In this document: positions 29,147 through 50,509 of the stretch, one piece after another
How positions within the stretch are numbered: position 1 is the stretch's first letter
How the letters are laid out: each line of letters begins with the position of its first letter
Virus record (IMG/VR): IMGVR_UViG_3300017987_005500
Strand: one strand, 5' to 3'
DNA length: 64,000 nucleotides
Source of the DNA: a virus
Lineage: Duplodnaviria; Heunggongvirae; Uroviricota; Caudoviricetes
The notes under the pieces: generated by a model
Seen by the model: the letters and a program-made list of their open reading frames with translations, nothing else
Databases searched by the model: none
Told to the model about the DNA's origin: nothing
Program-made: the position numbers and the translations under genes

Positions 29147-29157
29147 TTATTCACCTA

Positions 29158-29313
29158 TTAAAAGTATTTATCCCATAATCCAAATACTGAAAAACCAATT
29201 GAAATAAAGATTGTTATTAGTACTAATGTTAATAATCTTGATAAGAAAATTTTGAATATTTGAATTGGTTTTTTATTGACTGATGTTTCAAAGCCTAATT
29301 TTATCCATTGCAT
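29158..29313 (-). CDS. 51-aa membrane peptide (absent from ORF track)
   Basis: MQWIKLG...LLTLVLITIFISIGFSVFGLWDKYF*, fills the operon gap. Confidence 0.5.
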   Translation of the reverse strand: MQWIKLGFETSVNKKPIQIFKIFLSRLLTLVLITIFISIGFSVFGLWDKYF

Positions 29314-29314
29314 T

Positions 29315-29851: not shown

Positions 29852-29852
29852 T

Positions 29853-30608: not shown

Positions 30609-31203
30609 ATGTTTGTCCTATTAAATTACCAAGTAATGAAGCTATGAAAACTCCTATAATGTAACTAATTATTTTAACCCACTTAGAAATTTTTGGATGT
30701 CTTTGACTTAACCTAAAAAGGTGAGATATTCTTAATTGTGTTTTATATTGGTTAAGTAAATTCTTTGCAACAAAATTATTATATGATTTATATATTGGAG
30801 TCATGAATTATCCTCAATCTGTTCATTTAATTTGTTTATTAATTCATCTCTCTTTTTCATATTTATATCATCGCCTTCATATTGTATTAATTTCCCAGTT
30901 GGTTTATGTGTTATTCTGATAGCTACAATTCCATTATTATTGGAATAAGTATCAATCATTAGATCTTTTAAATTCAATTTCATATCAATTTACACATTTT
31001 TACAGTTAAGCGTATAGTTGGAATATCTTGAGGAACATTGTCATCTTCAATTAAAAAATATATAGCAATATCTCCAGCTTTTTTATCATCATCTTTAACT
31101 CTATACTTTCCACCTATTTTATATTCTTCTGTCCTATTACAAGCTAAAGGTAAATTTATAAAATCTTCAAATTTCATTTCTTCTATTTTATTTTTTTCGC
31201 TCA

Positions 31204-32028
31204 TTATAAAAATCCCTTATATTGTTTACTATCTTCGGTTAATTTAAACTCTAATTTATTATTAGGATTTTGTTGCAAGAACATAGTAAGTCTATCTGGT
31301 ATTTCACCCTTGTCCCAATACTCTGCTATATATCCCATATCAATTGCAACTCCACCCAAATGTTTAATCAACCCAGTATAAAGACGTCCCAATTCTCCAG
31401 CAGATACTAACCACATATCATATTTATCCCAATCATCTTCAATTGTCTTAATCACTTTTGAAAATGATTTATTATAATGATCTTCATAATGCTTAACTAT
31501 ATTAATTAAAGTTATGTCATATTTTTCAAGATTTCTTTTAACTCTTGGACATGCTGTGATGAAAGCTATTTTTCTTTTATTCATTACATTGAGAATATTT
31601 CTTTGGTTTCCCAATTTAAGGCAAAGTAAAAAATTAATTTCAGGATTGCAATATGTATCTATATCAAATTCAGCAAGATTATATAATTCTTTCCACATTT
31701 TCAATCTTCTGTCAGTTTTACCTGACATTGGTTTATAATTCTTTCTACATCGTGGCCAAAATTCTCCATCATAATATACTTGAGGGGTATCTATATAATT
31801 TGCTCGAGATGAAAAGAATGCCCAGGAATTTAAAACATCATATAATTTATGATGAGGAATTCCTTCTTTAAGTACAATTTGATTTATTTGCTCAGTATCG
31901 TTATTAAGCAATGAATGTATATACTTAATTCCTCCATCTCCATATCTTATCAACGAAAAAGGTTTCTTATTTTTAATACATTCATCAATTTCATTAATAA
32001 GATATTTTAATTTGACAACAGGTTGCAT
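31204..32028 (-). CDS. GT-D fold (DUF1792-like) glycosyltransferase
   Basis: FSLIRYGDG...LVSAG...GGVAIDMG. Confidence 0.7.
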   Translation of the reverse strand: MQPVVKLKYLINEIDECIKNKKPFSLIRYGDGGIKYIHSLLNNDTEQINQIVLKEGIPHHKLYDVLNSWAFFSSRANYIDTPQVYYDGEFWPRCRKNYKPMSGKTDRRLKMWKELYNLAEFDIDTYCNPEINFLLCLKLGNQRNILNVMNKRKIAFITACPRVKRNLEKYDITLINIVKHYEDHYNKSFSKVIKTIEDDWDKYDMWLVSAGELGRLYTGLIKHLGGVAIDMGYIAEYWDKGEIPDRLTMFLQQNPNNKLEFKLTEDSKQYKGFL

Positions 32029-33056
32029 TATTTAATACCTTGTTTTATTTTTCTATTTTCAATAAGTTTTTCAAAATGTTTAACCATTTTTCCCATATTC
32101 TCTTCTCTGTTACCCAATTTAAATACTCTCTGTCTTGCTACAGAACCATAATTGAACATTTCATTTCTATTCTTTAATAAATATTCAATTGTATTGTAAA
32201 ATGATTCATAGTTATTTTCGGCAATAAGTCCATTCTCTCCACCAACTACATAGTCCTGCATTCCTGACATTGGAGCATTTGTACACACAACTGGGCAACC
32301 TGTCAACATTGCCTCAGATGGTGGAATATGTAAACCTTCAAGTGAAGTAGGAGCTAACCATAAATTGATATGATTATAAAATGTATTTTTAGTTTTCTTG
32401 TCAGGTCTTTGAAAATATTTATCAATGACTTCAATGTGATGAGGTTGAGATTCATTTCCCATCATCCATAATTGAATTCTATATTTTCTTCTTAGTTTTG
32501 TGACTGCATCAATAATCCATTTAACTCTTTTGGTTTGTCTTTTACCACCTTCATTATAAAGACCTCCCAATATAGTTACATCGTTTGTTTTATTTCTAAT
32601 TTTCAATTGAGTAAAATCAGCAAGGTCATAACCTGGTCTTATTATTTCAGATAAAAAGTTAAGGTCTTCCAATTTACGTTGAAGACAATTGCTATTTACT
32701 ATCTTTTCAGTTGGAGCTTTAAGGACTGAATTGATAATTTGTTTCTCATTCATATTCCATAGCTCAAATCCTCTTATCCAATGTGTTTTCAATCCACATC
32801 TTTCAGGGAGTCTTACAGTAGACCTTACAGTACCAAAACCTGTAGCAATTACAATATCAGCATCTGGCACATTATTAAAACTTCTAATAATTTTATGATC
32901 AGCAATAAGAGGAGTCCAGGTGTGTTGATTTCTTCCAGTATCAATTATTGTGACTTTGTGTCCCAACTTTTTAAGAGTGTTAGCGGATTTAATGATTGTC
33001 ATAGACCCACCGTTATTTCCAAGAGAACAATTCATTAGATTAAATGTTATTCGCAT
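32028..33056 (-). CDS. GT4 family glycosyltransferase
   Basis: GNNGG, DADIVIAT, EGLHIPPSEAMLTGCPVV. Confidence 0.85.
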   Translation of the reverse strand: MRITFNLMNCSLGNNGGSMTIIKSANTLKKLGHKVTIIDTGRNQHTWTPLIADHKIIRSFNNVPDADIVIATGFGTVRSTVRLPERCGLKTHWIRGFELWNMNEKQIINSVLKAPTEKIVNSNCLQRKLEDLNFLSEIIRPGYDLADFTQLKIRNKTNDVTILGGLYNEGGKRQTKRVKWIIDAVTKLRRKYRIQLWMMGNESQPHHIEVIDKYFQRPDKKTKNTFYNHINLWLAPTSLEGLHIPPSEAMLTGCPVVCTNAPMSGMQDYVVGGENGLIAENNYESFYNTIEYLLKNRNEMFNYGSVARQRVFKLGNREENMGKMVKHFEKLIENRKIKQGIK

Positions 33057-33867
33057 TATATTTCTCCTCTAATTCTTTTTGAGTTATCCAACATTTATCT
33101 CGTTTCATAATATTATCTTTCCATGGCAATATTTGAAGGTTTGCTTTATTTCCAATTATTTCAGGTTTAATATTTCTTCTAAATCCTTCTGCTATAGAAA
33201 AAATATGATCAACGTTATAAAAACCATCACCTATTCCTATAGGTAAATTATCAGGATTTATATTTTCTACAGATTGTTTTGTTATAGTTAATACTTTTCT
33301 ATAATAAGCATTGCGTTTTCCAATTTCTTCATCAGTTCTTTTTAAACCTTTCTTAATAAGAGATTCAGAATACATTTTTCTGTATTCTTCTGATAACCAT
33401 CTATCTTTAATTATTTTTGACATATTATCTTTATATTCTTTACTGCTACAAATATATTTATGTTTTATTTTAACATCTTTATCATTCATTGGATTATTAT
33501 TTTTAATAAATAATGAATGATCTGGTCTTTTTCTTCCAAATAATTTACTATTTTCTCCTTTTGGTATTTTTTTACCAATTTGAGATTTAGAATTAACTCT
33601 TCTGTTAATTAAACATTTTCTATGGTTATCATTACAATATAATTTACCTTCACGGGAAATATATTTTGCTATTTGACCACATCCATTTTCGCAAAGGTTG
33701 TTATTAGGATTATTAATTGATTCAAAATTATTTAATTTTCTACCTCTGTTAGATTCACTATTCACTTTTCTTAACCCAGGACATTTATTACAACTTTTTT
33801 CACAACACCATTTACCATTTTTAAATTGATGATTTGCTTTTTGTCCGCATCCATATTCACAAATCAT
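33040..33867 (-). mobile_element. Free-standing HNH homing endonuclease (duplicated CxxGCG module, type-2 HNH)
   Basis: CEYGCG...WCC..KCP and CENGCG; VDHIFSIAEGF...NLQILPWKDN..K. Confidence 0.75.
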
Positions 33868-34703
33868 AATTCAAATGTCTCCTTTTTACTAAAATCATAA
33901 TCATTTAATAAATAAATATTTGTATCAAGAGGATTTATTGTTTTGATAAAACTTTCAGAATAATCTCTACATAAATATAATTTAGTACCCAACAATAATG
34001 ATAAATGTGAAGTCTCTGATAAATTAACAGATATTGTAAATAAAGATCTCTTAATAGCTGTGATCAAACATCCTATAAGACTTATTGATGTATCATATTT
34101 AATTGCATTTAAATTTATAAGTTCTCTTGTTGTAAATAATAAATCTGTAAATGAATTAGATGGATCATGTATAATAAATCTTATTTTTTTATCAAGTTCT
34201 CGATCAAGTTTTTCAATATAATAAAATGCTTCTTCGAGATAAAGACCAGATGTATCAACAACAATATGATCAAAATCTCTCATTAAAGATGACATTATTT
34301 TTTCATTGTCAACTCTTGGATTAAAATCATATAACATTTTTTCTTTTGGAAATTGCCATTTGATTAATGATCTCTTTCCAAATATATCAGGATAAAAATG
34401 TTCTTTAGCTTTATAATGTGCTCTATATTTTCTCTCAAATATATGAACCATTTTCTTATAATTTTCTTGTGTAATGCCTTTAAGATTAAAATTTTGTTGA
34501 AGGTTTATGTTATCATTATTAATTCTTAAAGGCACTAAAATATCAGCATAAGAACCATATAAATCAAAACGCTCAGGTCTTGTATACACAAGTATGTTAT
34601 GATCCGGAAATTTATGTTTAAGATGAATCGCATAAGGAGCAAATCTAAATAATTCCCAAGATAAACTTCCTATAAATGGTCCAAATAAAAATGCTGGTTT
34701 CAT
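33864..34703 (-). CDS. Putative glycosyltransferase-like protein (paralog of 35340)
   Basis: GPFIGSLSWE, FDLYG.YADILVPL, SHLSLLLGT; island context. Confidence 0.5.
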   Translation of the reverse strand: MKPAFLFGPFIGSLSWELFRFAPYAIHLKHKFPDHNILVYTRPERFDLYGSYADILVPLRINNDNINLQQNFNLKGITQENYKKMVHIFERKYRAHYKAKEHFYPDIFGKRSLIKWQFPKEKMLYDFNPRVDNEKIMSSLMRDFDHIVVDTSGLYLEEAFYYIEKLDRELDKKIRFIIHDPSNSFTDLLFTTRELINLNAIKYDTSISLIGCLITAIKRSLFTISVNLSETSHLSLLLGTKLYLCRDYSESFIKTINPLDTNIYLLNDYDFSKKETFEL

Positions 34704-34906
34704 TTTTTATCCTTTATTTCTATTTTATCTACAAAACCTTCAATTTTAAAAGTACCATTTTCTTGTTTAACAACTCTACCTAAAAACATAACTTCATCTG
34801 AATAATCAAAATGTATATCTGTACATTTCATTTCTGCTTCAAATTTATCTGTTTTAAAGATTATAGTTGCTTTATCATATATTTTAGTATCGCTCATGAT
34901 CATTCC

Positions 34907-35335
34907 TTAGTCAGTAATGACATCTTCATCTTTCATAATTTTAATATCATTTTCCAATTTCGATATTGTTACTTCAGCTTCAATTTGTTCAGTTTCACGC
35001 TCTTTATTTATTCTATCAATCGTTTCAGTTAATTCAGTTACCATTTTTTCATGAGCGATTGTTTTTTCTTTAACTGTATCATTCAGCTCTTGAATTGCAT
35101 CCTTGAATGAATTTATTTCAAGTCTAACGCTTTTCAATTCATCAACTTCAAGTTGAGCTTTCTCAAGAGCAAATACTAAACCCTGCAATACAAAAATGAT
35201 TTCTGTATAATTGACATCACCCTCATATGTATTTTGAAATCTCTTTTCCTCAATGACAGTCAATATATCTTTAACACGAGGTCCATAAGAATTCCACCAT
35301 TCATTCTGACATTTTAATTCTCTCATTTTAGCCAT
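34907..35335 (-). CDS. Coiled-coil protein
   Basis: Heptad-rich C-terminal half. Confidence 0.6.
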   Translation of the reverse strand: MAKMRELKCQNEWWNSYGPRVKDILTVIEEKRFQNTYEGDVNYTEIIFVLQGLVFALEKAQLEVDELKSVRLEINSFKDAIQELNDTVKEKTIAHEKMVTELTETIDRINKERETEQIEAEVTISKLENDIKIMKDEDVITD

Positions 35336-35339
35336 TTAT

Positions 35340-36242
35340 TCACCCCTTCTTTTTTAATAGTTTATTCATAGTGTTGAATACTTTCTTTGGATCTAGATTA
35401 AATTTCATGTCATCTAAAAAAGTAATCGGCGTATTTGTATAATTATAAGTCTTAGTATGAAGCATTCTTTGATTGCCCCATTCTAAAACATCTGTACTTA
35501 ATAACAATGATAAATTGGGTATTGCTGATTGAGAACCAACTGTTAAAACAGAATTATAAACAATTGATATTGTCAAACCTATTAAAGAGCTGTTATCATT
35601 TATAGGAATTTTATTAATATCAAAAAATCTATTCTTTTCATCAGGTTTATATTCAGGACTTCTTCCTATTATAATAAATTCAAATCTATTTGGTAAATCA
35701 CTATCCCAAATCATATCATAAAAAGTTTGCCAATGATTCCAATTCCTTCTAAATCCTTTTCTAAATCTTGGAGATATAACAACCCAAGGTTTATCTTTTG
35801 AAATATATTTATCAACTAACTTTTTATTTTCAACTCTTGGTTTAAATTTAGCAAGTAATTGATTTTGAGGAAATTGATTCTTTTGTGTGAATTGTTTTCC
35901 TGCTATCTTTGGATATATATGATCAACTATTTGATATTTTTTATTATATTTTCCATTAAATCTTTTAATGATTTTTTCATAATTTTCAAGTGGATAACCA
36001 TCTAATCTAAAACAATTCGGTTTGTATTTTATAAAATCTCCCTCTATTTTTAATGGAACTAATATATCAGCATGTTTACCATATAAGTCAAACTCTTGTT
36101 CTCTACATAAAACTATAAGTTTTACTTGATTGTTATATTGTTTTATTTTTTTCCATAAAGCATGTGGAGCAACTCTAAGAATATGCCACCCTAATTCAGA
36201 ACATATTGGACCGCACAGAATAGCTTTTTCTTTCATATACAT
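35340..36242 (-). CDS. Putative GT9-like glycosyltransferase (paralog of 33864)
   Basis: GPICSELGW, FDLYG.HADILVPL, RNW..W, VGSQSAIPNLSLL. Confidence 0.55.
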   Translation of the reverse strand: MYMKEKAILCGPICSELGWHILRVAPHALWKKIKQYNNQVKLIVLCREQEFDLYGKHADILVPLKIEGDFIKYKPNCFRLDGYPLENYEKIIKRFNGKYNKKYQIVDHIYPKIAGKQFTQKNQFPQNQLLAKFKPRVENKKLVDKYISKDKPWVVISPRFRKGFRRNWNHWQTFYDMIWDSDLPNRFEFIIIGRSPEYKPDEKNRFFDINKIPINDNSSLIGLTISIVYNSVLTVGSQSAIPNLSLLLSTDVLEWGNQRMLHTKTYNYTNTPITFLDDMKFNLDPKKVFNTMNKLLKKKG

Positions 36243-36633
36243 ACCTTTTGTGCTAATTTACCAGTTGAGCATTCATCTTTATGACCTTTTGAATAATGAC
36301 ATTTTTCACAACAAGCAATTCCAAAGTCAGGATCTAATGAGAAAAATGGTTCAAGTTTTTGAGGTCTTGAATGATGAGCATGATTTGCTTTTTCTCCACA
36401 ATATTCACATTTGTAATTAGACCTTTTTAAAACTTCCCTTCTCCATATATTATATTCTTCAGCTGTATAATATTCTTCTTTGATAATTCCAGCTTTTATT
36501 TTGCATTGTTTATCAAGTTGACTAGTCTTTATATTATATAAGGACATCTATTCCAATTATCTTCACAACACCACTTACCATTTTTAAACATATATTTTGC
36601 TTCTTGATTACAACCATATTCACAAAGTCTCAT
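36233..36633 (-). pseudogene. Internally deleted, frameshifted HNH homing endonuclease
   Basis: 36633-36529 encodes MRLCEYGCNQEA...WCC...RCPYII*. 36547-36233 encodes the HNH end in another frame. Confidence 0.8.
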
Positions 36634-36920
36634 TACCATTTACCTTTTGCTTTCCTCTTTTTAATCTCACTTGATAACTGTGTTCTTATATTACCTATAC
36701 AAGGATTTTTTATTTTACCCATACGAAATCCCGTTCCTGTAAGATAATTTATTGTTATTCTTATTTTATCATTAGACGTTTTATTAATAGGTCCTAAATA
36801 AGTTTTAAGTTGTTTACAACACCAGTCTGGTTTAAGATTCCATTGTCCTACTAAAGATTGTCTTATACTTTGCCATTCTTTATTTTTGACAAGGTCTTTT
36901 ATACTTTTTTTACCAGTCAT
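36633..36920 (-). CDS. Hypothetical basic protein
   Basis: Likely start MTGKK at 36920 (AAGGA RBS). Confidence 0.6.
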   Translation of the reverse strand: MTGKKSIKDLVKNKEWQSIRQSLVGQWNLKPDWCCKQLKTYLGPINKTSNDKIRITINYLTGTGFRMGKIKNPCIGNIRTQLSSEIKKRKAKGKW

Positions 36921-37725
36921 TATGTAGTTCCTTCTTATTAACAATATATTTATAAAATTCATCAAATTTCATTTTATCAATATTTGTATTTTGTTTCTCA
37001 AATTTTATGTCTTTATGTCTATTTTTTGTTAAAGCATTGCATACAGAACCTGCCATTCTTCCACAGTGAATACCTAATTTAGTTGAGAGTCCGAGAATAT
37101 ATCTATCTCCGCCTGCTGCCTGAGAAAGTTTTCTCCAATAAACTTGATCATGTCTTTTATTATGATTTACAAGTTCCCTTAAATCTAAATATCCAACGTC
37201 TCTAAAGAAGTTATTTCTTACACACCATAAAGCTGACCCACCAAGTTTACCTGCCATAGCATCTAACCCAGCGATTTTATAAGGAAGTTTTTGACCATTC
37301 CTAATACCACCAGGACGTTGACCAATCACTTTTATATTTTTCAACTTATATTTATTAACTTCTTTCCAAGCAGCTCTAAGAGTTTTATCCCAACCAGGTC
37401 TTACAATAATATCATTATCTAAAAATACTAAAAACATAATATTATCTTTTTCAGGATCTTGTTCATGTACAGCTCCAAAATTATTACATGCTGAAGCTTT
37501 TGAAAATGCTTTAAATGTTGATGTTGCTGTATTAAAAGTTACTTGAGCAACTTTTCCTTTAGATAATAATTTATGATAATAATTAAAATGCTCATCCAAT
37601 TTATGATTAGTTAAATTATCATAAAGATAAATTTGATGAGGAATTTTAGAATGTAATCTTAATGCCTCTAAGCATTTTTTTGTAATTGCTAATCTATTTC
37701 GGACAGTTATCATTATCTTGTACAT
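36910..37725 (-). CDS. GT2-like glycosyltransferase
   Basis: ITVRNRL, YLYDN, VFLDNDI...GW, VGYLD. Confidence 0.8.
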   Translation of the reverse strand: MYKIMITVRNRLAITKKCLEALRLHSKIPHQIYLYDNLTNHKLDEHFNYYHKLLSKGKVAQVTFNTATSTFKAFSKASACNNFGAVHEQDPEKDNIMFLVFLDNDIIVRPGWDKTLRAAWKEVNKYKLKNIKVIGQRPGGIRNGQKLPYKIAGLDAMAGKLGGSALWCVRNNFFRDVGYLDLRELVNHNKRHDQVYWRKLSQAAGGDRYILGLSTKLGIHCGRMAGSVCNALTKNRHKDIKFEKQNTNIDKMKFDEFYKYIVNKKELHNDW

Positions 37726-37738
37726 AGTATATCCTTAT

Positions 37739-38074
37739 TTACTCAAAATTAAATTCATAATGTATGTTAACATTTGTACCATTGCCAACTTTTACAGGTC
37801 TGAATTCTCTGCACATAAAAATATTCATTTCCTCAATTTTAAATTCTATAGAATCAATAAACTTAATTTCATCACTGTATATATTAACATCGAAAGATAC
37901 TTGTTTAATATTAATAGGAACCATTTTACTTAATACCTGAGTTCCATCTATATAAAATATAGCTTCTGTTTTATAAACATCACTTTTATCTTCTTCTGTT
38001 AAAAACCAATCTTTAAAAGATTTATATGATCTTATTGTAATTTTAAAATTGTTTATCTCAACCTTACTGAACAT
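37739..38074 (-). CDS. Hypothetical protein
   Basis: ORF within the operon. Confidence 0.5.
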   Translation of the reverse strand: MFSKVEINNFKITIRSYKSFKDWFLTEEDKSDVYKTEAIFYIDGTQVLSKMVPINIKQVSFDVNIYSDEIKFIDSIEFKIEEMNIFMCREFRPVKVGNGTNVNIHYEFNFE

Positions 38075-39353
38075 GTGCCATTGCTTTATTAACTTTCTCT
38101 TCTAATTCATCAAATGGAAAGTCATCAAAACAAATTCCATGATCGTCAATTGCATTTTTACATGGGAGATGTCCATGAATATAGCAGGGTGCGCAAGATA
38201 CTTTATTGCATTCTATGCTATCTGCTAAATCTCCATAAGTTGAAATTCTTACTTTTGATGGGAAGGGACCATATAATGTCAAGGATCTTTTTCCTAAAGA
38301 TGCTGCAATATGGACAAGTGCGGAGTCAATTGAAAGGACTAAACTTGAATGTGCCGCTAAGGCAATTGTTGAATCTAATGTTTCAGAGAATGGTGCATAA
38401 TTAAATACACGCTCTCTATTTTCTTTTGAGATAAAAGTCTCAATGAAATTTTCGATACCACTCTCAAATCTCTTATTATCAGTTATTACAATATTATACC
38501 CTTTGCTTGCAAGAAGATCTAATGCTTTTCCCCATACTTGAGGTCTTGGTGTTCTTATTGGAGAACTTGCTCTTAATTGAGCTAATATAAAAGGTTTATC
38601 ATTAATTCCCCATGACCACAAAGCACCTCTTGCTTTTTCAAACCATTCTTTTTTAGCTTCTTGTTTTGGTATAAGTTTTTCATCAGGAAGGTCTAATCCC
38701 ATCCATTGTGTAAAAAGTCTATATGCGTTGACTTCCTTAGCTTCCTCACATCTCTCAATAACTCCCTCAAATGTAACATGATAATCTGAGCGAACCATTT
38801 GAAGATAATTAAATGGAAGATCGACTAATTTATCTATACAATCCCATGTCTCAACCATTGCATGATATTGAGGTCCACATGCAAATAAGATTTCAGACGT
38901 TGGATATTTTTCCTTAAGATGAATCATATTAGGTTGGATAAATAATAAATCACCTATCCCGCCTGTTCTCCATATGAGGAGACGCTTATTATCTAAGTTT
39001 TCTCCTCTATATGGTTTATAAAGTTTCTCAAATTTTGTATTACATGGTCTTAAAACTTTGGCACCAAAATGATCATTATAATGAAGTTGTCTATATACGC
39101 TCAAGCTCATGACATATTTATTTTTCTTTTTCAAAACTTGAGTCTTAAATTTATTTTGCATAAATTCGCATTGACGTTTACATTCTGCTACAATCATATT
39201 AGGACCGTGATCTCTTAACGTATTTAAATTTGGAACATGAGCATATACTTGATCTCTTTCAATTCCAAATTTTCTAAATTCTTCAGAAGGAATTGGTTTC
39301 CCTTCTAATTTTCGATTCGCTACATCGGGCATTAAACTTTTCATGGTATTCAT
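38064..39353 (-). CDS. GT9 (heptosyltransferase-like) glycosyltransferase with N-terminal extension
   Basis: RTGGIGDLLF, IDSALVHIAASLG...LYGP, CAPC. Confidence 0.85.
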   Translation of the reverse strand: MNTMKSLMPDVANRKLEGKPIPSEEFRKFGIERDQVYAHVPNLNTLRDHGPNMIVAECKRQCEFMQNKFKTQVLKKKNKYVMSLSVYRQLHYNDHFGAKVLRPCNTKFEKLYKPYRGENLDNKRLLIWRTGGIGDLLFIQPNMIHLKEKYPTSEILFACGPQYHAMVETWDCIDKLVDLPFNYLQMVRSDYHVTFEGVIERCEEAKEVNAYRLFTQWMGLDLPDEKLIPKQEAKKEWFEKARGALWSWGINDKPFILAQLRASSPIRTPRPQVWGKALDLLASKGYNIVITDNKRFESGIENFIETFISKENRERVFNYAPFSETLDSTIALAAHSSLVLSIDSALVHIAASLGKRSLTLYGPFPSKVRISTYGDLADSIECNKVSCAPCYIHGHLPCKNAIDDHGICFDDFPFDELEEKVNKAMAHVQ

Positions 39354-39788: not shown

Positions 39789-39865
39789 AATTTCCTCCTG
39801 GTTTTATAGTAAATCTTTCATCATGTGCTACAATAAAAGTTATCATTTATTTGTTCTTAATATTA

Positions 39866-40939
39866 TTACTTGATTCCAATATCTGACATAGTCTTAACAA
39901 GGAGTCCACTTGAAATTGCAGTTTGTGGATTTTTTGCCATTCTTATTGAAGAAACATCAAATGGTAATTCATATTTTTTAATTGTCTCTTTGAAAAGTTC
40001 TAAAAATCCAGGGACTGAAGAAGTTCCTCCCGCTATTACAATAGGAATATCCTCATCAAGTTCTAAATCAAAATTTTCATTAAATTGTGATATTATATTT
40101 TTAACTGTGTAATTCATCAATGCAGAGTAATAATATGTTAGCGCTTCTAAGACTCTACGTCGTTTTTTATTTTTTTCTGTGCTAAATCCTTTACTTAAAT
40201 CTAAATATCTTTCTTTAATATTTGTAACTCGATTTGGAGTTATACCTAAATCGTTTGCTACATTTGTGTCTATCCAATCTCCAGATCTTGAAGTTGAAAA
40301 TGTAAATGCTTCAACTGCCTTATATGCGCAACATACATTACACATTCCAGCTCCAAATGATAATCCTATTCCAGAGAATTTCTCTTTAGCACATTCAGAA
40401 TAAATAACTGCCATTGCTTCATTACAACTTGTGTGATTAACTCCAATTGCGCCAAGTATTCTTGTGAATACCTTTTCATGATATGTTACACTTCTGTCCA
40501 TATCAATTGCTTCAGCAGGAACTGAATATGAACAATATACATCTTTATCTTTAACATTCCCAAACATATTTTTAATTATAAGAGCAAGAACATCAACTGC
40601 ATCAAGTTCGCTTGGAGAAATCATTCCTTTCTCCATAGGACGAGACACAGGTTTATTAAAAAGATTTGCCATTTTAAAAGCGTCATCTCCAATAATATAT
40701 GTATTCCCATCTTCAGATTTAATATGAGATAAGTCTGAAAATTCAGATATTGAAACTTCATCTGTATCAATTGATAAAAACATATTTCTTGTTATATTTG
40801 CAGAAGTCGGTTTATCTGAAGTTGATAAAATAATAGTCATTGTACCAATGTCCAAACCAGCTGCTATTTTTTTATTCTTTGTGGTTTTTGGTTTCTTTCG
40901 AGTATCTTCGTTTGGGTCCGTTATAATATCATCTGTCAT
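39866..40939 (-). CDS. Actin-fold ATPase, volactin-like
   Basis: GLDIGTM (phosphate 1), NEAMAVIYSE, GLSFGAG (phosphate 2), GDWID, IVIAGGTS (adenosine). Confidence 0.85.
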   Translation of the reverse strand: MTDDIITDPNEDTRKKPKTTKNKKIAAGLDIGTMTIILSTSDKPTSANITRNMFLSIDTDEVSISEFSDLSHIKSEDGNTYIIGDDAFKMANLFNKPVSRPMEKGMISPSELDAVDVLALIIKNMFGNVKDKDVYCSYSVPAEAIDMDRSVTYHEKVFTRILGAIGVNHTSCNEAMAVIYSECAKEKFSGIGLSFGAGMCNVCCAYKAVEAFTFSTSRSGDWIDTNVANDLGITPNRVTNIKERYLDLSKGFSTEKNKKRRRVLEALTYYYSALMNYTVKNIISQFNENFDLELDEDIPIVIAGGTSSVPGFLELFKETIKKYELPFDVSSIRMAKNPQTAISSGLLVKTMSDIGIK

Positions 40940-41472
40940 TCTTTATCTCCTTTTAATTCACGTAATATATCAGCACTCTCAGAAATATCAGACTCTACAT
41001 ATATTTCTTCTGATTTTGTATCAGATATTTCCATTCCGTCTAAACTAATCTCTGGTACAAATTCATCATCATCTAATGATTCAATTTTAGGTCCTGTTGA
41101 AACTGTTTTACTGAAAGATTTTTTGGGTTTAATGACTCCGCCTTCCATTAATTTATTCATCCCATCCATCAATAATTCAAATTTTCTATTTAATTTAGAT
41201 AATTCTTTTGAGCTAACACCATCTTTAATTCTTTGTACAATAACTTTTTCTGGTTTTTTAGCTTTAGCAATTTTTGTATTTTTCGGAAGAGTTTTAATTA
41301 CTTGAGGTTTTTCATCCTCAACTATTTGATATTTTGAAAGTCCATTCATTTTCAATGCTACAATAACTAAATTAATATCAACTCCAGATATCTCAATATT
41401 ACATGGAGTTCGTACCAATCCAACTCTTGGTAATGTAAATGAGCATCCTGGATCTTTAACTATAAGTCTCAT
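40936..41472 (-). CDS. Hypothetical protein coupled to the actin gene (candidate adaptor)
   Basis: ATGA overlap; small N-domain, short coiled coil, acidic linker, terminal amphipathic helix ISESADILRELKG. Confidence 0.6.
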   Translation of the reverse strand: MRLIVKDPGCSFTLPRVGLVRTPCNIEISGVDINLVIVALKMNGLSKYQIVEDEKPQVIKTLPKNTKIAKAKKPEKVIVQRIKDGVSSKELSKLNRKFELLMDGMNKLMEGGVIKPKKSFSKTVSTGPKIESLDDDEFVPEISLDGMEISDTKSEEIYVESDISESADILRELKGDKE

Positions 41473-41482
41473 AATTTAATTC

Positions 41483-42901
41483 CTATTCATAATTATAAAT
41501 ATATAATTCAAGTAAATCATTTTTTCGTAAATCAACATGTTCAGCATTAATAGTTATTGTTACTCCATCATCATCTAATGTATAATGATCTCCATATAAT
41601 AGCGGACCTTCCTTTCCTATCAATACTAATAAATCTTTAGTTACTGTCTCAGGAACTGTTATATCATATGAAGTCGTTGAATCTGCTTCAGCTTGTGTTG
41701 TGAGATGTATATATCTTATTTTAAATATTGTCTCTCTTTGTTTACATTCTTTAACTTCTCCCGATGGAGAGTATTCTCCACTTGAGGTAGAGTCAAGTCC
41801 AGTCTCCCATGTTTTAGTAAATCTCATTTCATGTTCATGAGGTTCGTATTGCAATTGTTCTTCTGTTTTACTTGATGGATCAATTGTAAAGAATGCTTCT
41901 CTTGATTCTTTTGGAACAATTTCTTTTACTTTATCATCTTGAACTAAATCTTGTCTAACTTGACTTAATTTATAATCCTTTCCATGTTTATCAATAATAT
42001 AATTTAAAAATTCTTCCTGCTCTTTAGGTTCCAGTGTTCCCATCATATTATTGAACATAGCATTTTCAGAATACGAAGTCGCTGATGAAACATCCATATT
42101 TGTTTTAATTGATTGAACTAAATAATCAGTTTCTAAAACTAAAAAAGATGGAACTTCAAGTTCATATTCAACTTCAACAGTTAATCTCCAGTCAGCTAAT
42201 TTATCAGTACCCCCATAACGAGTGCTCCCATCGCTCATACCTGTCATTTTGTATATGGGTTTAATTTCAACAGGAATGACGTATTCGTCGCGATTTGTGG
42301 TCTTGACTAACTGATTGAAAGCTCCAGCTGATTCCCAATTTAATCTATGATGAGCACCTGTATCAGGATTGACATATTCATAATTTATGAATTTTTCAGG
42401 AAGAATTAAAAATGTATTAAACCATATAGGGTAAATATATCTATCAATATCACCCATAATTTGAATCATAAATAATCTTAAATCACAATATTCATAAAAT
42501 GAATTTGTAAGCATCAATAAATTAAATGTTCCTTTTAATCTTGTGAAACCTACATTTACTTTAACATCTTCATCTTGATACACTGGTTCATATATCCTGC
42601 TTATCAGTCCAGCTGCTAAATTAGGATATCTATATAATTGCTTTCCTCCAGCATTTGCATCTGCTGTGGTCATTTCTCCAGATGGATCTAAAATCAATGC
42701 TGGTAACATTGGCATATCAGTTTCTCGATCATACTGTTCTTTTTTACTTAAAAATTCAACAGCTTTATCATATGTACCAACCACACGATATTTAAAACGT
42801 TCATATAAATATGGAGCAAAATAATCTAAGGTGGAATGAAAAAAATCACCTATCACATTATGTATAAAGAAATAATGATATTTTGCTTCTTGATTTGTCA
42901 T
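41483..42901 (-). CDS. Hypothetical 472-aa protein, possibly virion structural
   Basis: Long ORF with alternating beta-strand patterns; no diagnostic motif. Confidence 0.55.
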   Translation of the reverse strand: MTNQEAKYHYFFIHNVIGDFFHSTLDYFAPYLYERFKYRVVGTYDKAVEFLSKKEQYDRETDMPMLPALILDPSGEMTTADANAGGKQLYRYPNLAAGLISRIYEPVYQDEDVKVNVGFTRLKGTFNLLMLTNSFYEYCDLRLFMIQIMGDIDRYIYPIWFNTFLILPEKFINYEYVNPDTGAHHRLNWESAGAFNQLVKTTNRDEYVIPVEIKPIYKMTGMSDGSTRYGGTDKLADWRLTVEVEYELEVPSFLVLETDYLVQSIKTNMDVSSATSYSENAMFNNMMGTLEPKEQEEFLNYIIDKHGKDYKLSQVRQDLVQDDKVKEIVPKESREAFFTIDPSSKTEEQLQYEPHEHEMRFTKTWETGLDSTSSGEYSPSGEVKECKQRETIFKIRYIHLTTQAEADSTTSYDITVPETVTKDLLVLIGKEGPLLYGDHYTLDDDGVTITINAEHVDLRKNDLLELYIYNYE

Positions 42902-43527
42902 TATTCATCCCCTTTATCATCTTCCAATTTAATCACCTTATTTGTATCAATATTTGGCATTTGAACACGATTCATGAAAGACTTTTTATATTCTCTATTA
43001 AATTCATCTACAACTTTAATAGACTGTGATGTTGATAATTGAACTGCTGTTGTCCTTACTATTTTCTTTTTAAGTTTTGCTACAATATGTTGTCTTTCAG
43101 TTACAATAAAAAGAAATTCTTTTTCATAACCGACCAATGTCAAACCATATAACATAACCGTATTATAAAATGTTTTTCCTTCATAATCATACTTTGAAAG
43201 ATTGATTGATTCATTGAATGTAAATACCACGTCAGTATAATAATCATCTTTAATTTTATTAAACTGGTTAGTAATATCTAAATTATTTCCTCTATAATTA
43301 TGTAGCTCTAAAAATGTTTCACAGAATTTAGATGACTCTAAATTTTTAAACATATTTATTTTAATACCATGACTCTGCTGAGAATGTCCCATAAAGTCAG
43401 GGTCTACACGAAATAAAAGAAAGTTTGATGATTTATGAAAAAATACTCCAATGTTGTAATAACCATCTAAAAATGGTACTCTCAATGAGTAATGTCTGTC
43501 AAATGATTTACCTAATTCGAGTGGCAT
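42901..43527 (-). CDS. Hypothetical protein
   Basis: AAGGAG RBS, TAATG coupling. Confidence 0.65.
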   Translation of the reverse strand: MPLELGKSFDRHYSLRVPFLDGYYNIGVFFHKSSNFLLFRVDPDFMGHSQQSHGIKINMFKNLESSKFCETFLELHNYRGNNLDITNQFNKIKDDYYTDVVFTFNESINLSKYDYEGKTFYNTVMLYGLTLVGYEKEFLFIVTERQHIVAKLKKKIVRTTAVQLSTSQSIKVVDEFNREYKKSFMNRVQMPNIDTNKVIKLEDDKGDE

Positions 43528-43543: not shown

Positions 43544-45556
43544 CTAAAAATCTATATCATCCCAATTATCTTCTTCTTTATCTTCTTTAACTTCTTCTTT
43601 ATTTTCAGCTTCTACAGTTTTCAATCTTGCTAACATTAAATCTTTTGATAGCATACATTGTTCAAAATTATTTGCTACAAAATTCTTGAAGGTTCCCTTT
43701 TTATCACTTTCATTCCACACATATAATGCCTTAAGAACATTCTCACCTAATTCCTCAATTGCAGAATTAAATTCCCACTCAACATCTTTTGTACCAATAT
43801 CTTTTAGATAATTTAATAAAGCATCAACAGTTTGTTTTGGCACTTCATTTCTATATTTATAAACCAATCTGTAAACATGAGCTTCTTTAACAGCTTGAGG
43901 TGCTTTCGTGGGTGTTGATTTTTTAGGTGCTGCTTTAGCTTTTGGTTTTTTCTTCTCATCAAATAATTCTAAAATATCATCACTGAAAGCTTTTTTATCA
44001 ATATTTTCAAAATTACCTAATTTCTTTTCAACCTCAAGTTTTATGAGATCATTTATTTGTTCTAAACTTAATTTGTTAATAGCAGGTAATATAACTTCAC
44101 CGCTTTTATATAAACTATCATGCATCTCAATTACAGTTTGACCTTTACCAACTATATTATCAATTACCTGTGTAATAAATGAGTCTACGTCCAAACCTGT
44201 AACTGTTGTGCAACTATAAGATGCAAGAATTTCCTCATATTGATTGAATACACCTTTCGCCTTATATGCATTGAATCTTTCCATCACACAAGTCTTAATT
44301 GCATTCTTATCAATCTTATCTAAAAATGAAAAAATTAGAACGTCAGAAAAACTTCTAAATGCCAAATATAAAATTGCCTTATTGTGCATTGCATCTGACT
44401 CTTTGTCTTCTAATCTTTCTCTCATTATTTTAATATATGCTCCAACTGTTAATAGATCATATAATAATTCAACATTTTGAATTGGTAAATCATCAACTCC
44501 TTTATATTTCAAAATATTTGTAGTTGATGGCAGAGGTGTTGAATTTCTTGAATAATTCTGAAGATGTGTATGAAATATCAGAGTTGAGATATATGAATAT
44601 GATTCCATATCAGCTTCAGTGAAATCTGGTAATAAATCAACATCATATGCTTCTTTTATAGTCAATATAAATTCCATAAAAGGATTTGGTTTTGTGATTG
44701 ATGAATAAAGCATATTTTCAAGAGTCTCAATCTTTCCGTCCAATACCTTATTTATAAAAGGACTATCAAACTCTCTTATAGCAACCTTTTGTTCTTTATC
44801 TTTAGTTGCTTCAATTTCAGGAACTTTAATGTTATTTATATTTTCATCCATAAATCCACTAAAACTATCTTGTGCTTCGGAACTCTCTGGAGGACTTTGA
44901 CCAGTATATTTTTCAACCTCTTCAGATGTTGTCACGCTTACAAAATTATTGACAGTGTCGCCGTCCTGCGCAACACCCGAACCTATCGCCGCCGCAATCT
45001 GACCGGGAATACTTTTGATGTCCCCTCTCATTCCATCATTTGTCTTTAGTAAATTTGCCATTATTTGTCTATTCACTAAACTCATCGCCATTTGATCACA
45101 TGTATTAGAAGTTGTTTCTAACTTTTTAACAAGTGCTAAAAATGAAGATCCCATTGGCAAATATATCTTTCCAAAGTCAGATTCATTATGTCTAATTTCA
45201 ATTTGAATGACATTTTCATTTGTTGATTCAGCAACTAAAAATGAAAATTTTAATGTACGTCCTCTTTGATATTTACATAAAATTTCCGCTCCGGATTGAA
45301 ATGCATGTGCTATATCTTTTTGGACTTGTCTCAATCGAAGTATTAAATCAATTACATCAGTATATGAAAGGTTACATGACTTTCTTGATCTGTCAGAATC
45401 TGCAATAATTGAAATTAAAATATTTGGAGCTGTAAAATAATTGAAATCATTGGTGTTACATGAAAGTGCCATTTCAATTGAGCTGTTACTTCCATATATT
45501 TGATCTCGGTAGGAATATAAAGTTTGGTTAAACCATGTCGTGTTTTCGTTATACAT
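43544..45556 (-). CDS. Hypothetical 670-aa protein with acidic C-terminal tail
   Basis: AAGGAG RBS; ends EEDNWDDIDF. Confidence 0.7.
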   Translation of the reverse strand: MYNENTTWFNQTLYSYRDQIYGSNSSIEMALSCNTNDFNYFTAPNILISIIADSDRSRKSCNLSYTDVIDLILRLRQVQKDIAHAFQSGAEILCKYQRGRTLKFSFLVAESTNENVIQIEIRHNESDFGKIYLPMGSSFLALVKKLETTSNTCDQMAMSLVNRQIMANLLKTNDGMRGDIKSIPGQIAAAIGSGVAQDGDTVNNFVSVTTSEEVEKYTGQSPPESSEAQDSFSGFMDENINNIKVPEIEATKDKEQKVAIREFDSPFINKVLDGKIETLENMLYSSITKPNPFMEFILTIKEAYDVDLLPDFTEADMESYSYISTLIFHTHLQNYSRNSTPLPSTTNILKYKGVDDLPIQNVELLYDLLTVGAYIKIMRERLEDKESDAMHNKAILYLAFRSFSDVLIFSFLDKIDKNAIKTCVMERFNAYKAKGVFNQYEEILASYSCTTVTGLDVDSFITQVIDNIVGKGQTVIEMHDSLYKSGEVILPAINKLSLEQINDLIKLEVEKKLGNFENIDKKAFSDDILELFDEKKKPKAKAAPKKSTPTKAPQAVKEAHVYRLVYKYRNEVPKQTVDALLNYLKDIGTKDVEWEFNSAIEELGENVLKALYVWNESDKKGTFKNFVANNFEQCMLSKDLMLARLKTVEAENKEEVKEDKEEDNWDDIDF

Positions 45557-45587: not shown

Positions 45588-46268
45588 CTAAAAAGTCAAT
45601 TCGTTAAACTTAAAATCTAGTTTATTCGGTTTCTTTTTATACTCTTTTTCATTTGTTCTATGACTCATGTCTATTTTCTCATATAAAACATCTACTAATT
45701 TACATAATACATGTCCTATTAAAATATGCATTTCTTGTATTCTTGCTGTATTATATGAAGGTACTTTAATTAATACATCATATTTATCAAATTCAACTTT
45801 ACAGTTACCTGTAAGAAGAATTGTTTTAATTCCCATTTCTTTAGCTCTATCAAGAGCAAGTCTTACATTAGGTGATGTTCCAGATGTTGAAATACCAATA
45901 GCAACATCACCTGGATTGCCAAGAGCAGAAATTTGTTTTGAAAAAATCTCTTTGTAATTGAAGTCATTTGAAATTGCTGTAAGAGCTGAAGTGTCTGTAG
46001 TTAGAGCAATTGCAGGAAGAGGTTCTCGGTCAATTGAAAATCTATTTGTAAATTCAGCAGCTATATGTTGAGCATCAGCAGCACTACCTCCATTACCAAA
46101 TAAAAATAATTTCCTCCTTGTAATTGGATAATCTCTTTTCTCAGGATTTGGATTGAATATCTCTTCTAATAGTTTACTAGCTCTAATAATAAAATTATGA
46201 CATTTACTTAATGTAAGAGCTGTTAATTTTTCATGTTCAAAAAATATCTCATCAACTATAGTTACCAT
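45588..46268 (-). CDS. gmhA: Phosphoheptose isomerase
   Basis: GNGGSAADAQHIAAE, SND, ISTSG.S.NV, TARIQEMH. Confidence 0.95.
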   Translation of the reverse strand: MVTIVDEIFFEHEKLTALTLSKCHNFIIRASKLLEEIFNPNPEKRDYPITRRKLFLFGNGGSAADAQHIAAEFTNRFSIDREPLPAIALTTDTSALTAISNDFNYKEIFSKQISALGNPGDVAIGISTSGTSPNVRLALDRAKEMGIKTILLTGNCKVEFDKYDVLIKVPSYNTARIQEMHILIGHVLCKLVDVLYEKIDMSHRTNEKEYKKKPNKLDFKFNELTF

Positions 46269-46683
46269 GTTGTAGAAACTCCTTTCTTTTTGAAAGTTAT
46301 ACGTTTACGTTGGCGTAAACCATCACGCACCAGCGTTGTGGTTTTGTCTGCGCAACTTCCTAATTATAATTACTTACAAATTCCAGTACTTTTTTTATTT
46401 ATTACTTAAAAACTTTTTTTATTAACCTATTTTGGAGTCGTCACTAAGGTGACTCCCTTCTAATTCTAATTCCTGGGGAATTCCAATTCTTAAAGGACAT
46501 ATATTCAATATAAGTTATTATTATCATTCTTATTATTGTACCTATCAAAAGAACTAATTATTACTTTTTTTAAAATACATGTACCAAAAAGGTTAATATT
46601 TGACCAATTATTACATTTTCAAAAAAACTAGAACTATTTATTTTATTTTTTAAAAATTAAGAACCAAATGTTATATTTTAGCA
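46269..46683. other. Candidate replication origin
   Basis: Longest non-coding gap in the window. GC-rich hairpins, AT-rich tracts and phased direct repeats beside a Rep-like gene, close to the coding-strand switch. Confidence 0.55.
46551..46680 (+). repeat. Iteron-like imperfect direct repeats (about GAACYAAWTATTAYATTTT)
   Basis: Copies start at 46551, 46601, 46631 and 46661, with a weak copy at 46581. Confidence 0.55.
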
Positions 46684-50507: not shown

Positions 50508-50509
50508 TT

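Follow-up and report, generated by a model that had tools for sequence, protein, structure and literature searches.

The stretch of DNA analyzed here (the window, 64,000 nucleotides) carries on its minus strand a gene for an actin-like protein of 357 amino acids and, overlapping it on the upstream side, a gene for a partner protein of 178 amino acids. Both open reading frames are present as described in the original prediction. The coordinates of this cassette and of the features around it are collected in Table 1.

Table 1. Features at the actin locus of the window
Feature	Position	Strand	Basis or remark
Volactin-family actin-like ATPase, 357 aa	39866..40939	-	Pfam PF25216, AlphaFold2 model, motifs
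Partner (putative adaptor) gene, 178 aa, unnamed family	40936..41472	-	ORF, iterated profile, model
Partner tail (conserved C-terminus, aa 138-178)	40939..41061	-	Alignment, hhalign, model
Translational-coupling junction	40936..40952	-	Read directly from the sequence
472-aa protein	41483..42901	-	Separated from the partner by 10 nt; conserved only within the window's clade
208-aa protein, clade-specific	42901..43527	-	Stop overlaps the start of the 472-aa gene
670-aa protein with acidic C-terminus, clade-specific	43544..45556	-	L004 homologue, 29% identical
Promoter-like motif TAAGAACAAATAAATG	39844..39859	-	Just past the actin stop, directed at the 135-aa gene that follows

The 357-aa protein is a genuine member of the Volactin family. 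The Pfam model PF25216 matches it with 250.2 bits (E = 4.8e-74, gathering cut-off 35) and the alignment is near full length, with residues 26-348 on positions 2-319 of the 321-position profile. Volactin was the sole Pfam match at E ≤ 0.01; at this threshold MreB_Mbl (PF06723) was absent from the Pfam matches and the ParM/StbA families were absent from the Pfam and NCBIfam matches. The NCBIfam models of MamK (NF040964, 28.1 bits) and salactin (NF053533, 19.3 bits) remained far under their cut-off of 400. The claim that the protein is volactin-like, and not an MreB, FtsA or ParM, is thus upheld, and the translation contains all of the motifs quoted for it, namely GLDIGTM, RNMFLSI, YIIGDDAFKMANLFNKPVSRPMEKG, YSVPAEAID, YHEK, NEAMAVIYSE, GIGLSFGAGMCNVCCAY, GDWID and VTNIKE.

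The nucleotide-binding motifs of the actin are intact. Phosphate-1 is formed by G28-D30-G32-T33, E174 is the predicted catalytic Glu, the phosphate-2 loop reads S194-F-G-A-G198 and the adenosine motif is G304-G-T-S307; all four are kept in phage and cellular volactins. The S-F-G-A-G loop, which the window actin has in common with the cellular volactins, is unusual among actins; typical actins have an Asp where both of these have a Ser. The motifs were compared column by column with 15 Thermoplasmatota volactins (373-413 bits) and one non-volactin actin as an outgroup. The Ser phosphate-2 loop, GDWID, RPM-x-x-G and the NE catalytic helix were common to the window actin and the Thermoplasmatota proteins, while the outgroup reads IDIGAGTTD at the phosphate-2 position. 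Many relatives of the actin carry inteins inserted in the phosphate-2 loop; inteins tend to sit at functionally critical sites of important genes.

An AlphaFold2 model of the protein (pLDDT 88, pTM 0.86) has the actin fold. The nearest solved folds in a search of the PDB were the MamK filament (PDB 5ljv; TM 0.68/0.74) and the BeeR filament (PDB 8r2n; TM 0.70/0.71), followed by MreB and actin, all of them filament formers; EutJ and Hsp70-type proteins were placed lower. The protein is 11-17% identical to the solved structures of MreB, MamK and actin. A PDB profile search with the actin returned nothing at E ≤ 0.01, and the Volactin family has no solved structure. Both its family and its fold place the protein with polymerising actins and not with the non-polymerising ASKHA enzymes, and together they suggest that it polymerises.

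The 178-aa partner has no match in Pfam, PHROG or NCBIfam. In its model an N-terminal beta4-alpha-beta domain (aa 1-51, pLDDT about 96) is followed by a central helix (aa 88-111) and the C-terminal tail. Fold searches with the N-terminal domain returned nothing above Z 4.3 and no ribbon-helix-helix (RHH), HTH or other recognisable fold; with a best Z of only 4.3 its fold can therefore be neither assigned nor excluded. The tail consists of the motif F-V/I-P at 138-140, a linker rich in acidic residues and, last, an amphipathic helix with the pattern D-A-x-x-L-x-x-L-K/R-K. The acidic linker and the terminal helix are the best conserved part of the partner, and P140 and L170 are near invariant across 42 partners. 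When the profiles of partners from the near and the distant clade were aligned, the tail was the sole region that linked them (hhalign 90%, E 1.5e-6). An acidic linker and an amphipathic helix had already been noticed at this end of the protein; the net charge of -14 over residues 131-178 and the AlphaFold helix at 164-174 agree with this description.

The two genes are conserved as a pair, as the original prediction required. With an iterated profile the partner was located at 88 of 94 actin loci, each time upstream of the actin gene and on its strand; in 66 of those 88 loci it adjoins or overlaps the actin gene. A word-indexed search with the partner profile gave at least eight proteins among the matches listed. 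Many family representatives have N-terminal extensions of 130-350 aa, which we considered as partner-actin fusions; the extensions had no match to the partner profile and therefore provide no Rosetta-stone support for the pair.

In the window the two genes are translationally coupled. An AAGGAG Shine-Dalgarno sequence (40952-40947) lies within the last codons of the partner and is followed, after a 7-nt spacer, by the ATGA in which the start codon of the actin (ATG, 40939-40937) overlaps the stop codon of the partner (TGA, 40938-40936), as had been predicted. In the window's clade the cassette is apparently co-transcribed with the three conserved proteins of 670, 208 and 472 aa, and the 670-aa gene is probably the first or second gene of this transcription unit. 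The promoter-like motif TAAGAACAAATAAATG, judged by its sequence and position, would mark the 3' end of the unit. Its core, (T)AAGAACAWA, occurs on the correct strand 25-70 nt upstream of at least eight genes, and no copy was found inside the block from the 670-aa gene to the actin gene. Sigma-70-like sites are not enriched in the window (72 vs 64.8 expected). The window has an excess of the T4 late motif TATAAATA (30 vs 16), none of which lies upstream of the actin cassette. No RNA run was listed as covering this locus.

The 670-aa protein encoded upstream of the cassette is 29% identical over its full length to the L004 homologue. Pfam, PHROG, NCBIfam and the phage database gave no match to it and the Atlas no usable one, and it could not be recognised as chimallin by these searches; the 208-aa protein had no match in Pfam, PHROG or NCBIfam. 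The 472-aa protein, present in 24-25 loci, is 54% identical to its L004 homologue across the N-terminal 270 aa and had no match in deposited phages. It was considered as a T4 gp15 tail completion protein on the basis of a weak Atlas lead (0.88; TM 0.60), which was not confirmed by Pfam; scans of five relatives with PF16724, which served as the control, gave no match anywhere and so say little about this lead.

Modeling of the complex, one of the checks proposed for the partner's C-terminus, placed the tail on the actin with a score of 0.77, while the best control reached 0.48. This score is a model's confidence; the mark for it is reached by 58 of 80 solved complexes and by 2 of 110 mismatched pairs. 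At least 84% of contacts are shared between the runs, and the pLDDT of the partner is at least 63. The predicted contacts are between partner residues 139-174 and actin residues 39-50, 68-76, 115-125, 153-165, 180-188, 207-208 and 336-357. Within these, the terminal helix is predicted to touch residues 180-188, 207-208 and 344-352, which belong to the helix before phosphate-2 and to the C-terminal helix. The model thus supports, and does not show, binding of the tail to the actin, and the order of the motifs, as opposed to a measured superposition, suggests that the contact site would be the cleft between subdomains IA and IIA. The same cleft is used on eukaryotic actin by WH2-type helices, and Gayathri et al. 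in 2012 are said to have found that the tail of ParR inserts into the IA/IIA cleft of ParM. Because ParM-ParR, actin-WH2 and FtsA-FtsZ peptide complexes have been solved, the score of our complex may reflect likeness to them.

The source of the DNA is an uncultured marine jumbo phage, T4-like and roughly 300 kb in size. The viral nature of the window, already assumed in the original prediction, is evident from a T4-type gp44 clamp loader, Dda, RNase H, denV, NUMOD3 endonucleases and Apyc1; a ligase is also found among its T4-type replication genes. The window's close relatives are jumbo-phage contigs of IMG/VR, and one of these, which has terminal repeats, is a complete genome (277,131 bp). 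The gp23 capsid gene (PF07068) was found in all five close relatives, which provide the gp23 evidence, the window's own capsid gene lying outside the 64 kb. The close relatives also contain two RNA-polymerase beta genes, and four of the five encode the peptidoglycan hydrolases SLT or Amidase_2; tubulin was found in none of the five. Because of this combination (gp23, two RNA-polymerase beta genes, peptidoglycan hydrolases and no tubulin) the host is probably bacterial.

Some of the close relatives are labeled Heimdallarchaeota, Thermoplasmatales or 'uncultured archaeon'. An archaeal host is unlikely, since any copy of the actin occurs in only 2 of 201 Asgard genomes, the contigs in those two share the phage synteny and the relatives carry Amidase_2 or SLT. 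The 'Heimdall/Thermoplasmatales' records look like mis-binned phage contigs. The presence of phage contigs with a volactin-type actin in public 'Heimdallarchaeota' and 'Thermoplasmatales' MAG records matters for inferences about the evolution of the Asgard cytoskeleton.

Relatives of the window actin are encoded by 315 IMG/VR contigs, some of them longer than 600 kb, and the family comprises 954 clusters at 50% identity. It also has bacterial members, for example Hyphomicrobiales and Wzz-kinase fusions. With PF25216 the phage copies score about 170-280 bits and the cellular proteins about 373-413 bits. In a tree that sampled one cellular phylum and a single outgroup, with the Haloferax sequence absent, the phage volactins form their own clade (SH-aLRT 98), which is separate from the cellular archaeal clade (90); the two clades group together, apart from the single, very long-branched outgroup. 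We found no publication on phage volactins.

Taken together, we propose that the two genes encode an actin filament and an adaptor that binds its end, in the manner of AlpAC and ParMR; we would give this reading a probability of about 0.55. In the infected cell the actin would most likely bind ATP and assemble into dynamic filaments. The partner, translated in step with the actin through the ATGA overlap, would act as the adaptor: its tail, with the FVP motif, the acidic linker and the amphipathic helix, would lie along the actin, the terminal helix would insert into the cleft between subdomains IA and IIA, and the N-terminal beta4-alpha-beta domain would hold a phage cargo. Growth or turnover of the filament would then move or position this cargo, as in AlpAC and ParMR. 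For the cargo itself we tentatively favor a virion-assembly intermediate or another phage protein complex over phage DNA, which we think unlikely.

In the larger clade the cassette is flanked by a homologue of Neck1/tail-completion proteins (phrog_5, E 3e-6), whose cluster is present at 33 loci, and by a giant tail sheath (phrog_2839, E 4e-31), present at 31, and all these genes share a strand; one representative was annotated per neighbor cluster. This arrangement suggests that the filaments may form late in infection and serve as a track or scaffold which organises or transports particles, with the partner tethered to a component of the neck, tail or capsid. The apparent co-transcription of the window's cassette with three conserved proteins, one of which gave the gp15 lead, points in the same direction. 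However, this lead was not confirmed, adjacency does not show interaction, and in the complete relative the actin gene is 138 kb away from the sheath gene and 47 kb from the capsid gene. We therefore consider a role in virion assembly to be possible, at less than even odds.

The neighborhood in the window's clade is different. Here Dda and the clamp loader are transcribed divergently at a distance of about 7 kb from the cassette, and this proximity to the replication module would fit a function in DNA positioning or segregation in the strict sense of AlpAC and ParMRC, in which the partner binds repeats in the phage DNA, the filaments move or anchor replicating genomes and the actin replaces the PhuZ spindle. 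The order adaptor to actin is shared with AlpAC, and the AlpAC adaptor is a DNA-binding protein; the window's partner has a strongly basic middle (+12), and tubulin was not found in the relatives. On the other hand, no RHH or HTH fold can be recognised in the N-terminal domain of the partner, the basic middle is not kept in the family (median +0.5) and the cassette of the larger clade lies among neck and tail genes instead of replication genes. Furthermore, no centromere-like repeats or iterons were found beside the cassette, where only 10 nt separate the partner from the gene upstream, and the nearest sizeable gap (46269-46683) contains only weak, imperfect two-copy repeats. The earlier placement of the cassette about 5 kb from a candidate origin was not borne out: the strand and GC-skew switch occurs at about 47.7 kb and the gap is without good repeats. 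Altogether this strict form of DNA positioning seems unlikely. Searches with hhalign of the 670-, 208- and 472-aa proteins, the GT9 and a 271-aa protein against the clusters of the distant clade revealed no shared neighbors; among the cassette genes and their neighbors only the partner tails are related between the clades. Since the gene neighborhoods differ between the clades, the cargo cannot be read from the context.

It is quite improbable that the partner regulates monomers by sequestering or capping (as a thymosin/WH2-like protein or an inhibitor), or that the protein with the actin fold is an ATPase that does not polymerise and has the partner as its cofactor. The tail is indeed predicted to wrap a single protomer and to fill the cleft used in longitudinal filament contacts, a Ser replaces the phosphate-2 Asp, and the N-terminal domain of the partner has no identifiable cargo-binding fold. 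Simple sequestration, however, would need neither the well-folded, conserved N-terminal domain nor the central helix; the Ser is also present in cellular volactins, of which the Haloferax namesake polymerises, and the top structural matches are filament formers. Least probable is a take-over of the host, in which the phage actin co-polymerises with or displaces MreB/FtsA-type proteins and alters cell shape or blocks division, with the partner as a regulator: it would fit the role of cellular volactin in Haloferax cell shape, the presence of MreB among the nearest folds and the 20-kb envelope-glycan island that the window carries directly downstream, but the low identity to solved MreB, MamK and actin, the lack of an MreB Pfam match and the dedicated phage-encoded partner, which argues for a self-contained system, speak against it.

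The occurrence of the same actin-adaptor cassette across hundreds of large uncultured phage genomes suggests a widespread phage actin cytoskeleton. Ideas in phage cell biology owe much to the PhuZ spindle, made of tubulin, of the nucleus-forming jumbo phages, and to our knowledge AlpC, from one actinobacterial prophage, is the only phage actin that has been studied. The Volactin family has so far been discussed only as an archaeal cell-shape cytoskeleton. The window actin may be a counterpart of PhuZ for positioning, transport or host reshaping, as was first suggested, and the absence of tubulin in the five relatives fits this idea. A broader version is somewhat unlikely: that a large, global set of jumbo phages with their own RNA polymerases and without PhuZ relies mainly on a volactin-type actin and its adaptor as a cytoskeleton, an actin counterpart of the tubulin spindle that organises replication or assembly sites in bacteria. 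If this is true, volactins would also have been carried between archaea and bacteria by phages. With a defined actin, a partner whose short, conserved tail is predicted to attach to it and a complete 277-kb genome of a relative, the way in which giant phages organise the infected cell becomes testable with recombinant proteins, before the host is cultured.

Among known systems, the nearest solved structures are those of MamK (5ljv) and BeeR (8r2n), which align over the full length of the window actin with TM values of 0.68-0.74. They are nevertheless only 15-17% identical to it, and the 28 bits of the MamK model compare with a cut-off of 400. The PhuZ/TubZ jumbo phages combine a cytomotive filament with their own multisubunit RNA polymerases, the latter being found also in the relatives of the window phage; the PhuZ/TubZ fold, however, is that of tubulin, which is unrelated to actin and was not found in the five relatives, and no shell protein resembling chimallin was recognised.

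The volactin that gave the family its name, VolA (HVO_2015) of Haloferax volcanii, belongs to the same Pfam family as the window actin (PF25216, 250 bits over the full length). Live imaging has shown that it forms dynamic filaments in vivo and it governs cell shape in Haloferax (PMC10869688); it is the one cellular member of the family that has been studied, by imaging only. The cellular (Thermoplasmatota) volactins and the window actin have in common the phosphate-2 loop G-i-S-F-G-a-G-M-x-N, GDWID and RPM-x-x-G. Unlike the cellular proteins, the phage copies form their own clade, have a dedicated upstream partner and probably function in a bacterial host.

The cassette resembles ParM/ParR/parC in combining an actin-fold protein with a small adaptor, the C-terminal helix of which is predicted here to enter the IA/IIA cleft. 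It differs in that the gene order is reversed, the actin has no ParM family match and there is no adjacent centromere. Furthermore, the N-terminal domain of the ParMRC adaptor is a ribbon-helix-helix, while that of the window's partner is a predicted beta4-alpha-beta domain whose fold searches stay at Z ≤ 4.3.

A parallel in architecture is AlpAC of the Corynebacterium glutamicum prophage CGP3, in which the gene of the DNA-binding adaptor AlpA is upstream of and co-transcribed with the actin gene (PMC4446434). Compared by description, AlpAC involves another actin family, the window's partner, of an unnamed family, shows no DNA-binding fold that could be recognised, and repeats like alpS were not found; moreover, AlpAC belongs to a temperate prophage, whereas the window is from a jumbo phage of the lytic type. 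In spite of these differences, AlpC and AlpA represent a phage-encoded actin-like protein and an upstream filament-binding adaptor (PMC4446434, PMC5539076), arranged in the same order, adaptor before actin, as the two genes described here.

The partner and actin genes meet at the junction AAGGAG-N7-ATGA, where the partner stop overlaps the actin start; this confirms the ATGA overlap in the original prediction, and every motif cited there is present in the translated actin. The volactin signature given in that prediction proved correct: the single Pfam family found for the 357-aa protein is Volactin (PF25216, E 4.8e-74; 250 bits with a cut-off of 35, profile positions 2-319 of 321). With the NCBIfam models of MamK and salactin the protein scores 28 and 19 bits (cut-offs 400 each), and searching the whole PDB with a sequence profile gave no match at E <= 0.01. 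Judged by its sequence, it belongs to the Volactin family. No variation is seen among 30 relatives in the phosphate-1 residues G28, D30, G32 and T33, the catalytic glutamate E174, the phosphate-2 residues S194 and G196-G198 or the adenosine motif G304-S307. Serine replaces the usual phosphate-2 aspartate in 15 cellular Thermoplasmatota volactins as well and is a hallmark of the family; the classical D-I-G-A-G is present in an actin outgroup from outside the volactins. Inteins occur in P0122, P0124, P0150, P0191 and about 13 more of the best 150 family representatives (P-numbers), exactly in the phosphate-2 loop (profile position ~190-197). They are either full inteins (Intein_splicing plus HNH) or mini-inteins (Hint_2). 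No intein interrupts the volactin gene of the window.

The AlphaFold2 model of the actin is confident (pLDDT 88, pTM 0.86). The PDB folds closest to this model are those of filament formers, namely the MamK filament (TM 0.68/0.74) and the BeeR filament (0.70/0.71), with MreB and eukaryotic actin likewise among the best matches; EutJ and FtsA rank lower. Haloferax VolA, the sole family member studied, forms dynamic filaments in vivo (PMC10869688). From the conserved motifs, these fold matches and the VolA filaments we infer that the phage actin polymerises.

Relatives of the actin are encoded on 315 IMG/VR contigs, some of more than 600 kb, and an exhaustive search of 1.84 billion representatives gave 954 family clusters at E <= 1e-3 and 300 at E <= 1e-30. 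Among deposited phage genomes, matches were restricted to two uncultured huge phages (30-37% identity). In a maximum-likelihood tree of 96 rows, which has a very long outgroup branch and samples one cellular phylum, all 76 phage-type sequences (72 labelled IMG/VR viral contigs, the window and three 'archaeal' MAG contigs) form one clade with an SH-aLRT support of 98. The 15 Thermoplasmatota volactins form a second clade (support 90), and three Hyphomicrobiales MAG copies, without a partner, fall outside both. The Hyphomicrobiales copies (loci L093-L095/L097) have an N-terminal extension of ~86 aa and lack the partner gene, P0125 (729 aa) is a tandem double volactin, and in P0176 (1160 aa) volactin is fused to Wzz, GNVR and a ParA-like tyrosine-kinase module of the polysaccharide co-polymerase type; the family thus occurs in bacterial-type genomic contexts as well.

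Several of the close homologues come from records labelled Heimdallarchaeota, Thermoplasmatales or 'uncultured archaeon'. We read them as binned phage contigs: the one inspected closely (L004) shares the phage synteny of the window, the labelled copies nest inside the phage clade, only 2 of 201 Asgard genomes have any copy, and the Thermoplasmatales MAG G001 holds a canonical volactin (406 bits) and a phage-type copy (243 bits) on separate contigs. The public archaeal MAG records concerned are L089/L099 and L096 (G001), L091/L098 and L119 (Asgard MAGs), P0059 and P0086; their contigs with the phage-type volactin look like jumbo-phage fragments.

The window has a GC content of 30%, and its DNA was detected in marine sediment and seawater metagenomes; a protein identical to its actin was found on contigs of up to 308 kb. 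Among the genes of the window are those for ligase, Dda helicase, RNase H, RNR and a clamp loader of the T4 gp44 type (~30% identical to T4-like cyanophages), together with a denV-type glycosylase and a tRNA-Trp. Five close relatives, with actins 57-61% identical to the window's, were searched as whole IMG/VR contigs. Each of the five has RNA-polymerase beta-type genes (two copies in four) and a capsid gene of the gp23 type, four have a peptidoglycan hydrolase (Amidase_2 in three, SLT in two), and tubulin and FtsZ_C domains are absent from all five. One relative is complete (277,131 bp, direct terminal repeats). On this gene content the lineage is classed as T4-like jumbo phages encoding their own multisubunit RNA polymerases, and the host is most likely bacterial. 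The nucleotide-modification cluster (dCMP deaminase, 5'-nucleotidase, QueC, a dATP/dGTP diphosphohydrolase N-domain fused to DUF1653 and a weak nucleoside 2-deoxyribosyltransferase-like match) suggests modified DNA bases (7-deazaguanine and/or purine exclusion). The Apyc1 homologue is probably a nuclease that counters defence through cyclic-nucleotide signalling. One NUMOD3 gene overlaps the clamp-loader gene just 3' of it, and another lies within the glycan island.

Features of the window and their coordinates
Feature	Position	Strand	Remark
Anti-Pycsar Apyc1 homologue	1721-2464	-	metallo-beta-lactamase fold; Pfam 72 bits, cut-off 50
NUMOD3-motif homing-endonuclease-like gene	2532-3329	-	
NUMOD3-motif homing-endonuclease-like gene	23047-23991	-	
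NUMOD3-motif homing-endonuclease-like gene	50483-51520	+	
Nucleotide-modification gene cluster	4454-10106	-	
Glycan-biosynthesis island	19565-39353	-	~20 kb, directly downstream of actin unit
Actin ORF	39866-40939	-	357 aa, overlaps partner ORF
Partner ORF	40936-41472	-	178 aa, overlaps actin ORF
GmhA-like SIS protein	45588-46268		upstream of glycan island
AT-rich gap	46269-46683		415 nt, near strand and GC-skew switch
NAD-epimerase	60514-61533		
(T)AAGAACA(A/T)A, intergenic	3994, 10144, 17660, 39856	-	
(T)AAGAACA(A/T)A, intergenic	49085, 55370, 60464, 63490	+	

The partner has no match in Pfam, PHROG or NCBIfam. An iterated profile search over the ORFs of 94 actin-bearing loci, four of them copies of the window's phage, found it in 88-89, always upstream of the actin and on the same strand, so that the gene pair is conserved. 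The spacing is <=50 nt or overlapping in 66 loci and 69-6016 nt in 22; the loci without a partner include three Hyphomicrobiales contigs and two with the actin near the locus start. The architecture is conserved: an N-terminal domain of ~50 aa (four strands, helix, strand; model pLDDT ~96), a variable middle with a helix at 88-111, and a conserved C-terminal tail with an (F/Y)(I/L)P motif containing the nearly invariant P140, a linker and a terminal amphipathic helix D-A-x-x-L-x-x-L-K/R-K with the nearly invariant L170. Partners of the window's own (near) clade and of the larger, distant clade of phage loci are linked via the tail only (profile-profile comparison, 90%, E 1.5e-6). Comparison of the N-domain with structures gave no convincing match (best Z 4.3).

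Complex prediction with the actin alignment and partner residues 125-178 gave a score of 0.77 versus 0.48 for the best control, a value that may partly reflect likeness to solved complexes, since those of the ParR-ParM and WH2-actin type are already solved. Among solved complexes 58 of 80 attained the mark for this score, among mismatched pairs 2 of 110. Three runs share at least 84% of contacts, with a partner pLDDT of at least 63. The model supports binding of the partner tail to actin, as the original prediction had proposed for the C-terminal helix. The terminal helix (163-171) is modelled against actin 180-188, 207-208 and 344-352, and the FVP motif and linker over 39-50, 68-76, 115-125 and 153-165. 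In the actin model, 174-182 is the helix before phosphate-2 and 341-354 the C-terminal helix; by the standard motif order of the fold, these two helices would border the cleft that separates subdomains IA and IIA, where ParR binds ParM and WH2-type helices bind actin.

The reading with the best support is a cytomotive filament and an adaptor tethering phage cargo: the actin would form the filament, the partner would bind its end or side, and the other end of the partner would hold the cargo. A virion-assembly component is a possible cargo, at less than even odds. In the distant clade the cassette has a Neck1/tail-completion homologue on one side and, a few kb downstream on the other, a giant tail sheath, a neck/tail context that fits this cargo; however, the window's clade offers only a weak, unconfirmed lead. 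Among the neighbours compared, those of the distant clade show no relationship to the window's, and the partner is the sole constant companion of the actin across clades; the two genes are a mobile cassette.

DNA as cargo, in strict analogy to AlpAC/ParMRC, is doubtful. The gene order fits and the cassette stands beside replication genes in the window, but no DNA-binding fold was recognised in the partner N-domain, no centromere was found and the partner has no conserved basic region. The AT-rich gap contains a weak 39-nt imperfect direct repeat (46550, 46630; 77% identity) and a terminator-like hairpin (46434-46456, +). A purely regulatory or sequestering partner and a takeover of host shape by the phage actin are both less likely.

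In the near clade the cassette is preceded by three conserved proteins of unknown function (670, 208 and 472 aa), with junctions ranging from overlap to 31 nt; this block adjoins divergently transcribed replication genes and lies upstream of the glycan island. The motif (T)AAGAACA(A/T)A stands 25-70 nt 5' of at least eight gene starts on the matching strand, one copy being directly 3' of the actin stop and facing the next gene. Because it is absent inside the five-gene block, the block is probably one transcription unit. We regard the motif as a candidate promoter of an RNA polymerase encoded by the phage; relatives have two RNAP beta genes. The glycan island encodes a DegT aminotransferase, UDP-GlcNAc 2-epimerase, GFO/IDH oxidoreductase, three hexapeptide acyltransferases, methyltransferases, a PIG-L deacetylase, several GT1/GT-D glycosyltransferases and a GT9 heptosyltransferase; the sugar-modification capacity of the window is unusually large for a phage.

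In the literature searched on volactin and on actin in jumbo or huge phages, no report of phage volactins or of the partner was found. With its filament and tethering adaptor, the phage pair would work like the ParM and AlpC systems, yet it is a member of neither; ParMR and AlpAC are, like it, mobile two-gene cassettes. Actin-plus-adaptor cassettes are already known, but not with this family and this adaptor, nor with such breadth in lytic-type jumbo phages.
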